Sequence record: MF327009
From: Shigella phage Sf25
DNA length: 64,000 bases
Reading direction: 5' to 3' (one strand)
How positions within the stretch are numbered: position 1 is the stretch's first letter; each line of letters starts with the position of its first letter. The notes under the pieces were generated by a model, which did not search any database, had not been told where the DNA came from, and saw only the letters and a list, made by a program, of their open reading frames with translations. This document shows positions 5,781 through 7,120 of the stretch, one piece after another. Made by a program: the position numbers and the translations under genes.

Positions 5781-6560
5781 TTAATTAAAAATATATACTT
5801 CATCAGTTCCATTCTTTTCTTTGGAATGATATATGTTAAAGACGTATTTTTTATTAAGATGCTTAACATTATATTTTTTAGACCATTCTTTAAGAAGAGT
5901 GTTTTCCTTTCCGTGATGCTCTAAAACATTCGACAGTCCAAATTTTATTCCTCTGTCATTTAAAGAATCTAAAAGATTTAAAAGGTCTTTTTCTTCTTCT
6001 TCTGACCAAAATTTATTATAATCAGCAACTGTTATAAGATATGGAGGGTCCACATATACAAAATCGCCATCTAGAATTTTGACATCTTTAAAATGCAATG
6101 AACTAAAGATTATTTTATCACAATTTTGTTTAAAGTGATTAAAGCGTTTTTCACTATTTTTGTTTATAGTTCTTTTTCCAAACGGAGTAGTAAAATTTCC
6201 TTTATCGTTTATACGAATCATATTACTAAACCCGTGAAAATGAAGAACATAAAGTAAAAGAGGATCTCTAGTTTTATTATAATCTTCACGTAATTTCAAA
6301 AACTCTTCTTTTGATGTTTTTGATAGTTTATATTGCTTTATTACTTTTAATACGTCATCCCATGATACATTAATAAGACGCTTATACATTTCAATAATTG
6401 GTTCTTGAATATCATTGGCCAATACAGGACCATTGACGTTCAAAGACACTGATAAACCTCCACAAAATAAATCCACGAATCTGTCATATTTTGGAAAATG
6501 AGGCTTAAGTTCAGGTAATAATGACTGTTTATTACCTGTATACGCGATAGCTCCTAGCAT
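5781..6560 (-). CDS. dam: DNA adenine methyltransferase (Dam, GATC-type)
   Basis: 259 aa; FCGGLSV (AdoMet motif I) and DPPY (motif IV); length equals T4 Dam. Confidence 0.8.
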
Positions 6561-7120
6561 TATATTCTCTCATTTATTGCAGCAAAAAACGAATTATATA
6601 ATTCTTCATCATATGTATTTGATAGTAATACTAACACGTTTTGTGATTTAGCATATTCATTAAACCTTGCTTGGATAGTTGGATTATTAGTAAATGATTC
6701 TCTTTTTGTCCATTTATTACGTGGATAATATCCGCATGGCAAAAAATCTAATATCATCAATGACACAGGGTTTTCAGTTTTTGTGTATTCTTTTAATTTC
6801 TCTTTATCTTCTAAATATATTCCAACCGAATCAATAGCTGTACCTCCACCAACTTGGTGTTTGATTTCAATTATATGCTTTTTACCGTTGCGAGAAATAA
6901 CAATATCAAATCTTCTAGTACGCTTCTTAGTTATAAAATTAGAGCAAAACAAATTATTTGATTTTTCAGTATCATCAATTAAAACCATTTTTTCTTGATA
7001 ACTAACTGAACAATCAGTGAAATATTCTTTTACTTTATTAAGTATGAAATTTTCAACTACGGCAGATATTTTATATGAATCTCCGTTTAAAGCCATTTCA
7101 TGCACAATTTTATTAATCAT
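6560..7120 (-). CDS. hypothetical protein with PD-(D/E)xK-like nuclease motif, start-stop-overlapped with dam
   Basis: Longest ORF 6560-7222, but an early promoter lies inside its first 34 codons so the likely start is MINKIVHEM at 7120; motif [19 protein letters not shown] (D...E-x-K); its stop overlaps the dam ATG (ATGA). Confidence 0.45.

Follow-up and report, generated by a model that had tools for sequence, protein, structure and literature searches.

A PD-(D/E)xK nuclease-like gene joined to dam in T4-like phages: a candidate restriction–modification-like cassette

The open reading frame directly upstream of dam in Shigella phage Sf25 encodes a small protein for which a nuclease fold, predicted by modelling, and an intact active site are well supported. 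We use X as shorthand for this frame and its product; it lies in the window, by which we mean the whole stretch of 64,000 nucleotides from sequence record MF327009 that was analysed. In our estimate the chance is about even that X and Dam make up a compact type II restriction–modification-like cassette, in which X would be the endonuclease, probably for a GATC-related site. This reading is drawn from the linkage of the two genes, which survives deep divergence and relocation, from the co-divergence of X and Dam, and from the fact that only X is ever lost. That X cuts DNA, at a particular site and in a manner sensitive to methylation, that it acts as a dimer, and what it does for the phage are parts of this reading that we infer. 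Neither the fold nor the type of system is in itself new. None of the curated libraries searched (Pfam, NCBIfam and PADLOC) contains the sequence family of X, and PHROGs lists the family without a function.

Where does X lie, and where does it begin? The minus strand carries, in this order, the primase gene 61 (8439..7411), X (7120..6560), dam (6560..5781) and the dCTPase gene 56. From 5400 to 8500 the window shares 99.9% identity with Shigella phage Sf24 and about 98% with phage T2, which both belong to Tequatrovirus (T4-like); to the left of this region it departs from all records compared. The open-frame listing takes the X frame out to a TTG at 7222. We place the start at ATG 7120 instead, because all homologues begin at the position MIN(K/E/Q)(I/L)(V/I). 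The longer TTG start was rejected on that ground and on a second, that the extension overlaps a promoter-like site. The features of the region are collected in table 1. The product of dam matches the D12 methyltransferase family of Pfam (PF02086) at 6.5e-51, with 173.9 bits against a cut-off of 22, and TIGR00571 at 1.4e-69, with 234.8 bits against a cut-off of 114.85. It is 100% identical to T2 Dam.

Table 1. Positions in the window of X, dam and the sequence features associated with them.
Feature	Position	Strand	Basis and remarks
X, 186-aa PD-(D/E)xK nuclease-like protein	6560..7120, stop codon included	minus	ATG 7120, TAA 6562-6560, read from sequence
Shine–Dalgarno-like GAGGA	7128..7132	minus	7 nt before the X ATG 7120; read directly from sequence
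dam, Dam-family (D12 class) N6-adenine DNA methyltransferase, 259 aa	5781..6560	minus	PF02086 and TIGR00571 matches
TAATG junction, X stop and dam start sharing one base	6558..6562	minus	final base of the X stop doubles as first base of the dam ATG, 6560
Putative active-site hairpin, X residues 71-89	6854..6910	minus	invariant residues (10-sequence alignment) and model strands 66-77, 80-88
D72 codon	6907-6905	minus	
E85 codon	6868-6866	minus	
K87 codon	6862-6860	minus	
Promoter-like TTTACT-17-TATTAT, TG before the -10	7146..7174	minus	consensus match; 26 nt upstream of the X ATG
Terminator-like hairpin and T-run	7226..7251	minus	consensus scan, pattern match only; downstream of 61, upstream of X, inside the opposite-strand dam.1 ORF
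Interval absent from T4	6648..7186, 539 bp	minus	pairwise alignment

A preliminary description of this DNA had proposed that the frame at 6560-7120 encodes a nuclease-like protein, or an unrelated small protein, and had left room for its being a known conserved T-even protein of different function. The frame is real, and it is not a T-even protein already known for something else. PHROGs assigns X to phrog_8706, ‘unknown function’, and the databases name its copies ‘hypothetical’ or ‘uncharacterized’, with the exception of one automatic ‘putative restriction endonuclease’ and one ‘head outer capsid protein’, evidently a mislabel. Literature searches found no published study of the X frame.

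What marks X as a nuclease? The motif peptide that had first drawn attention to the frame is present at residues 71-89, with the spacing D72-x12-E85-x-K87 rather than the D-x13-E-I-K originally read. Such a motif is by itself not above chance: the window has 100 stop-free stretches of 100 aa or more, and D-x(8-25)-[DE]-x-K occurs in 61 of them, the exact D-x12-E-x-K in 4. The motif of X is raised above chance by its invariance across homologues and by the predicted nuclease fold. In an alignment of 10 sequences (30–100% identity) the invariant positions are E23, R69, D72, E85, K87, H88, Q89, the block G93-TAIDS98 and D125. Pairwise dN/dS of X is about 0.2, which points to purifying selection.

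The AF2 model of X, built with eight homologues, has a pLDDT of 79 and a pTM of 0.78. It carries an alpha-beta-beta-beta-alpha-beta core, followed by helix-strand-helix, in a single small domain. In the model D72 lies on strand 66-77, E85 and K87 on the adjacent strand 80-88, and E23 on the first long helix. Two marks of the PD-(D/E)xK superfamily are predicted here, the core fold and, on core strands two and three, the conserved acidic and lysine residues of D...(D/E)-x-K. For the homologue from Dhakavirus MX01 BFVD holds a model made independently, which superimposes on ours with a TM-score of 0.91; a search of BFVD with the X model returned that homologue and otherwise weak nuclease matches only. 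In structural comparison the best match of the X model was the type IIP enzyme MunI, and after it came other PD-(D/E)xK nucleases, among them Can2, McrC, DrdV, BstEII, PfoI, PspGI, BsoBI, Bse634I, Cfr10I and NgoMIV; in Foldseek, too, MunI had the highest TM-score (0.60/0.57). The restriction-endonuclease-like core proposed from the motif is upheld as a predicted fold with invariant catalytic residues. MunI, of the EcoRI-like alpha class, is the closest fold to X, yet the identity between them is only 12–13% and we found no sequence-profile relationship. MunI recognises CAATTG and is paired with a different methyltransferase.

The sequence profiles point in the same general direction, below threshold. 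The best matches of X are all restriction-enzyme cores (DpnII, 0.0099; BanI, 0.011; HsdR N-terminus, 0.026), and the PADLOC model for type II endonucleases matches at 2.4e-4; no curated nuclease family reached its gathering score. Is X then a DpnII enzyme? DpnII and MboI (PF04556) are specific for GATC and sensitive to methylation. Their likeness to X consists in a Dam-family GATC methyltransferase as partner and in the recurrent profile match, DpnII being the top Pfam match in five of the 10 members of the X family (best E 8.3e-5). For X the match scores 15.7 bits against a gathering cut-off of 23 and spans the catalytic core only, residues 29-113 of X against positions 153-235 of the 278 in the profile. 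Since it is both below threshold and confined to the core, we do not file X in the DpnII family. X is about 100 aa shorter than these enzymes and is without their N-terminal part. The DpnII gene order also differs from one in which the endonuclease gene lies upstream of the methyltransferase gene, as X does. In the large protein searches with X no DpnII-family protein was drawn in, even at E up to 10. Because the partner is Dam and DpnII recurs as the top profile match, the site is probably GATC or close to it; because the match covers the core only, this deduction rests mainly on the partner gene.

The X family is small. Searched exhaustively with HMMER, 1.84 billion representative proteins yielded 12 matches, and two word-index searches of 5.8 billion sequences added no relatives to that set; the family amounts to about a dozen clusters, distant relatives being absent from all three large protein searches. 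In the PDB a single-protein search gave one chance match (E 0.7) and a family-profile search gave none. There were no copies in 185,579 bacterial and archaeal genomes and none in 72,556 plasmids. A scan of IMG/VR found two loci, which match the phage records ZN18 and KPV15. All X homologues whose surroundings could be judged are in T4-like phage DNA.

How constant is the company of dam? A Dam-family gene lies directly downstream of X, on the same strand, in eight of the eight contexts examined, down to an X identity of 30%, so that an endonuclease-like gene adjacent to a methyltransferase gene, as in type II restriction–modification systems, is found throughout. The eight contexts are Tequatrovirus, T2, Dhakavirus MX01, two metagenome contigs, Jiaodavirus KPV15 and contigs P0011 and P0013. 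The order 61-X-dam-56 holds in Tequatrovirus, in MX01 and in the two metagenome contigs. In KPV15 the pair lies downstream of the rII genes and upstream of a topoisomerase gene, in P0013 it is followed by a protein whose sequence we read as rIIA-like, and in P0011, which is short, X is directly upstream of dam; the X homologues of these last two contigs are about 31% identical to that of the window. The pairing is thus found in three different genomic neighbourhoods.

The packing of the two genes is tight, and this is conserved; the particular overlap is not. The preliminary description had taken the stop of X and the start of dam to overlap by four bases (ATGA) and had suggested coupled expression. 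The junction is in fact a TAATG that shares one base, and in other homologues X overlaps dam by 1 to 35 nt or abuts it. In T2 a 1-nt deletion shortens X to 181 aa, gives it a frameshifted C-terminus and leaves a 13-nt gap before dam. Translational coupling is not conserved in T2, nor is the overlap universal.

The transcription signals around the pair are pattern matches only. The terminator-like hairpin upstream of X may set X and dam off as a transcription unit of their own. The promoter-like site resembles a T4 early promoter, in a region where promoter-like sites are not enriched over shuffles. Together the two would make X–dam one early transcription unit. The promoter-like site falls within the 539 bp deleted in T4, a deletion that also takes the ribosome-binding site and roughly codons 1-158 of X. 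The retained 3' end of X reads TGTATAAT in T4 and T2 and TATATAAT in the window. Lacking the X promoter, T4 must therefore, we infer, transcribe dam from this retained 3' end.

X and Dam have diverged together, X the faster. Identities of the X homologues to the window protein are 64, 63, 57, 40, 31 and 31%, and those of the corresponding Dams 76, 71, 72, 62, 55 and 52%, in roughly the same order. Restriction enzymes usually evolve faster than their methyltransferases. The reverse association does not hold. KP15, RB43 and ECD7, of other T4-like genera, carry a more distant dam at another locus, beside nrdC and gene 49, without X. Small frames overlapping dam in these three phages and in a Selenomonas plasmid were considered as diverged copies of X and rejected (hhalign probability <1%). 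Wherever X is found Dam is found too, but dam can occur without X. On plasmids, the nearest relatives of the phage Dam, at about 40% identity, are methyltransferases beside restriction enzymes of the AlwI or FokI kind; the neighbours of plasmid Dam homologues are AlwI-family or FokI-type enzymes or unnamed proteins.

If the two genes form a pair, which of them is lost? We counted the phage records, Tequatrovirus-like and 519 in total, that match this region. X and dam are both present in 148 records, out of about 183 with dam; about 34 others, T4 and its relatives among them, have dam with only a remnant of X; about 336 of the 519, for example T6, have neither. Records with X and without dam numbered zero in this set. 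The pattern is that of a restriction–modification pair, with no endonuclease lacking its methyltransferase and with some methyltransferases orphaned. Within the remnant group there are at least two different deletion endpoints (the T4 type and KarlGJung), and in CE1 the remnant is divergent. In some isolates the copy of X is truncated; from these copies and from the frameshifted C-terminus in laboratory T2 it follows that X is dispensable and may be inactive in some strains.

The interval between dam and 61, whose comparison among the T-even phages the preliminary description had recommended, thus holds X in T2, only the last ~87 bp of X, in front of dam, in T4, and neither gene in T6. In T6 gene 56 is followed by the small plus-strand frame dam.1 and then by 61, and RB69, again with neither X nor dam, has the same arrangement of 56, a small plus-strand frame and 61. 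GenBank M22342, the 1544-bp record of T2 dam, contains most of the X frame with only dam annotated. In 1988 Miner and Hattman, in J Bacteriol, reportedly described upstream of T2 dam a 536-bp insertion relative to T4, without recognisable homology or function. It is the same DNA as the X region, the reported 536 bp being close to the 539 bp measured here. Where that account has an insertion, we see a gene with the predicted fold of a restriction enzyme, and in T4 the deleted state. The Dam of T4 and T2 has been regarded as an ‘orphan’ methyltransferase; in most Tequatrovirus with dam it is no orphan, since 148 of ~183 keep X. We conclude that the orphan state of dam in T4 results from the 539-bp deletion.

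How might such a cassette work? X and dam would be transcribed early, from the promoter directly upstream of X, and translated from a tightly packed message. X, which would probably form a homodimer as small type IIP enzymes do, would use E23, D72, E85 and K87 to cut DNA at GATC, or at another site related to that of Dam, wherever the site carries no N6-methyladenine, and Dam methylation would label the phage’s own DNA as self. The solitary dam of T4 would be the methyltransferase left behind when the endonuclease gene was deleted. Restriction logic has just this asymmetry: an endonuclease is lethal without its methyltransferase, and a methyltransferase survives alone. The cassette may, in addition, act as a selfish, mobile unit among T4-like phages. 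A precedent exists in chlorovirus PBCV-1, where R.CviAI/M.CviAI (GATC) pairs a small type II endonuclease with an adenine methyltransferase in a lytic virus with modified DNA. Chlorovirus pairs of this kind, whose enzyme activity is documented, are believed to act during infection against DNA in the cell that is unmodified. Like X–dam as read here, they are virus-encoded pairs of endonuclease and adenine methyltransferase; the host and the virus lineage differ, and no sequence relationship to X is known.

The weakest step of the cassette reading is its biological target. T-even DNA contains glucosylated hydroxymethylcytosine, which blocks most type II enzymes, and for that reason protection of self DNA by Dam may be redundant. 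Nor is there an obvious bulk target for X, because the usual hosts are Dam-positive and their GATC sites already methylated. With the phage DNA glucosylated and the hosts Dam-positive, the plausible targets are unmethylated foreign DNA or related phages; inside an infected cell X might meet co-infecting phages or plasmids, and where the host is Dam-deficient also its DNA. Methylation-deficient mutants of T2 and T4 are viable, and we know of no report of a GATC endonuclease from T2-infected cells. Against the cassette reading stand also the presence of Dam without X in KP15, RB43 and ECD7, the dispensability of X and a GATC depletion, described below, that does not discriminate.

What would follow if Dam were half of a cassette? 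What T-even phages use Dam for has never been clear. To our knowledge dam mutants grow normally, the only reported phenotype being P1 restriction of non-glucosylated phage. As half of a cassette the gene would gain an evolutionary explanation for its presence. Most dam-carrying Tequatrovirus would have kept the endonuclease half, and T4, the model phage, would be one that deleted it, so that T2, T4 and T6 would form a natural series of both genes, methyltransferase only, and neither. The function could be tested with a single cloned gene. One more restriction–modification pair would be added in a virulent phage with hypermodified DNA, and the question would become what such a phage restricts. 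It appears that T4 Dam has not been read before as the orphan of a decayed cassette.

Might X serve its own spread instead? As a homing endonuclease it would cut a site that lacks the cassette, such as the empty 56/dam.1/61 junction of the T6 or RB69 type, and recombinational repair in a mixed infection would copy X–dam in, as for the Seg and Mob enzymes of T4, with dam travelling along or protecting the target in the carrier. The clean presence or absence of the cassette between conserved genes suits this idea, T6 and RB69 having nothing between their small plus-strand frame and its neighbours, 56 and 61, and the cassette must be mobile, to judge from the different loci that it occupies from one genus to another. 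Free-standing homing endonucleases are, besides, abundant in T4-like genomes, and segF adjoins gene 56 in T4. The protein fits poorly. Where Seg and Mob have a GIY-YIG or HNH domain, X has a predicted PD-(D/E)xK fold, and Pfam gave no match to either domain at E up to 1. Over the whole chain X resembles a type IIP enzyme most closely, not a homing enzyme, and as a single small domain it has no extra DNA-binding module. Nor does homing require a constant methyltransferase partner or the lack of X-only genomes. We consider homing unlikely.

A nuclease that reads methylation, in the manner of DpnI, type IV enzymes or MutH, would reverse the sense of the pairing: X would cut or nick GATC sites that Dam has methylated, on both strands or on one. 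It might in this way destroy host DNA, which contains cytosine and is methylated, or take part in the repair or recombination of the phage, whose own DNA hydroxymethylcytosine would shield. X is physically coupled to Dam, enterobacterial host DNA is Dam-methylated and would offer a bulk target, and DpnI and MutH do use PD-(D/E)xK domains. On the other hand, the model, a single domain, shows no winged helix or other methyl-reader, and there was no preferential structural similarity to MutH. The phage’s own methylated DNA would itself be a target unless shielded. Host Dam alone would suffice for such an enzyme, and X-only phages would then be expected; none was seen, and dam-only phages are common. 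The ‘methylation-sensing’ possibility that the preliminary description had offered accords less well with this pattern of gene loss, and we give a methylation-reading X very little credence.

An X that does not cut at all is likewise very doubtful. Its nuclease scaffold would then serve DNA binding or regulation and tune the expression, specificity or processivity of Dam, and for this may be cited its tight packing and co-transcription with dam, the small regulators that restriction–modification operons often hold, and the lower methylation that T4, without X, is said to show relative to T2. That difference has been ascribed to substitutions in Dam. No helix-turn-helix domain was found in X by Pfam search or in the model, and E23, D72, E85 and K87 are invariant over deep divergence, where inactivated scaffolds usually lose such residues. 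Very improbable too is a general early nuclease for the breakdown of host or foreign cytosine-containing DNA, blind to methylation and linked to dam by shared history in a variable region, for although the variable early regions of T-even phages hold several genes for accessory nucleases and X is dispensable in many isolates, shared history fails to explain a linkage that lasts while Dam diverges to 52% and the pair moves among three loci, and it leaves the one-sided loss unexplained.

Does the base sequence of these genomes bear the mark of a GATC endonuclease? Of the 4-bp palindromes, GATC is the one most depleted in the window, with 67 sites observed against 197 expected (O/E 0.34). The pooled O/E in the other carrier contigs is 0.20. 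In KP15, RB43 and ECD7 it is 0.88, so that GATC is not depleted there. The strongest depletion of all is that of RB69, with an O/E of 0.12. We rejected GATC depletion as evidence for the specificity of X, since RB69, without X or dam, is even more depleted than the carriers. The depletion is a trait of the subfamily Tevenvirinae, not of carriers, and cannot be credited to X. A GATC-directed threat that circulates among Tevenvirinae would be consistent with it. One could picture X as a GATC endonuclease that tolerates hydroxymethylcytosine DNA, a weapon of phage against phage directed at co-infecting Tevenvirinae without Dam methylation. This is quite unlikely. It would explain the purge of GATC across the subfamily, non-carriers included (O/E 0.12–0.43, against 0.88 in other T4-like genera), the retention by T4 of an otherwise phenotype-less dam as an antidote, and the movement of the cassette between loci. 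Among further possible sources of GATC depletion are host MutH and other causes.

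What variation is found in the nuclease-like gene, the 186-residue member of the cassette with a predicted PD-(D/E)xK fold, at the end that overlaps dam? Comparison of T2 (L001 2675-3220) with window 6560-6600 showed that laboratory T2 and phage 107 have lost one nucleotide from a T-run close to the gene's 3' end. This 1-nt deletion changes the final residues so that the protein ends in NSFLLQ, shortening it to 181 aa and abolishing the overlap with dam. The remnant of the gene in T4 has the same 1-nt T-run variant as T2. Truncated copies occur in other isolates as well, at 142 aa in G29 and 61 aa in KarlGJung.

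In the window the dCTPase gene 56, which flanks the cassette, contains a perfect tandem duplication of 244 bp, the two copies being 100% identical. Since 244 is not divisible by three, gene 56 is broken into two overlapping ORFs. Sf24, T2 and the other best matches among the records listed have one copy of the unit, and the matched span in these single-copy records is about 242 bp shorter. In T4 gene 56 is essential. The duplication may be a real mutation, an assembly artefact or an edit.

Features of the window adjoining the nuclease-like gene–dam cassette
Feature	Coordinates	Strand	Remarks
gene 56 duplication	5126-5613	-	two copies, 5126-5369 and 5370-5613
gene 56 split ORFs	5735..5367 and 5443..4958	-	overlapping
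66-aa hydrophobic ORF	7214-7414	+	between cassette and primase gene 61, opposite strand

The soc–gene 56 interval is a further hotspot of presence and absence, directly adjoining the cassette. In the window the spacing is only about 80 bp (about 4875-4957), and the best record match to this stretch is no higher than about 97%. Two small ORFs lie between soc and gene 56 in T2 (L001 887-1302) and in T6, and the homing endonuclease gene segF in T4 (L002 3931-4605).

What lies on the other side of the cassette? The 66-aa plus-strand ORF, which has a strong GGAGG ribosome-binding site, shares 4 nt with the 3' end of gene 61 and is kept both with and without the cassette. It matches phrog_2024, a PHROG of unknown function; its T6 counterpart is annotated as dam.1, and RB69 ORF029w and MX01 ORF29 are of comparable size, on the same strand and at the same position. 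Its DNA is conserved in T4, where AF158101 carries no annotation for it.

Among plasmids, those of Gram-positive cocci and lactic acid bacteria supply the nearest relatives of the phage Dam, at about 33-43% identity (loci L013-L016, L018-L020, L028). These relatives are methyltransferases or methyltransferase domains that adjoin AlwI-family or FokI-type type IIS restriction enzymes, and none is a solitary Dam gene. In the T4-like phages KP15, RB43 and ECD7 (L023, L024, L025; Slopekvirus, Pseudotevenvirus, Krischvirus), dam adjoins nrdC and the endonuclease VII gene 49. A small upstream ORF (81-143 aa, unknown function), different in each, overlaps dam there; none is related to the nuclease-like protein.

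GATC was counted across the whole window and loci L003-L007, L010, L021, L023-L026 and L030. In Tevenvirinae DNA no other 4-bp palindrome is nearly as under-represented: the observed/expected ratio of GATC is 0.34 in the window, 0.20 in the other contigs carrying both cassette genes, 0.12 in RB69 and 0.43 in T6. In KP15, RB43 and ECD7 it is near expectation (pooled ratio 0.88).
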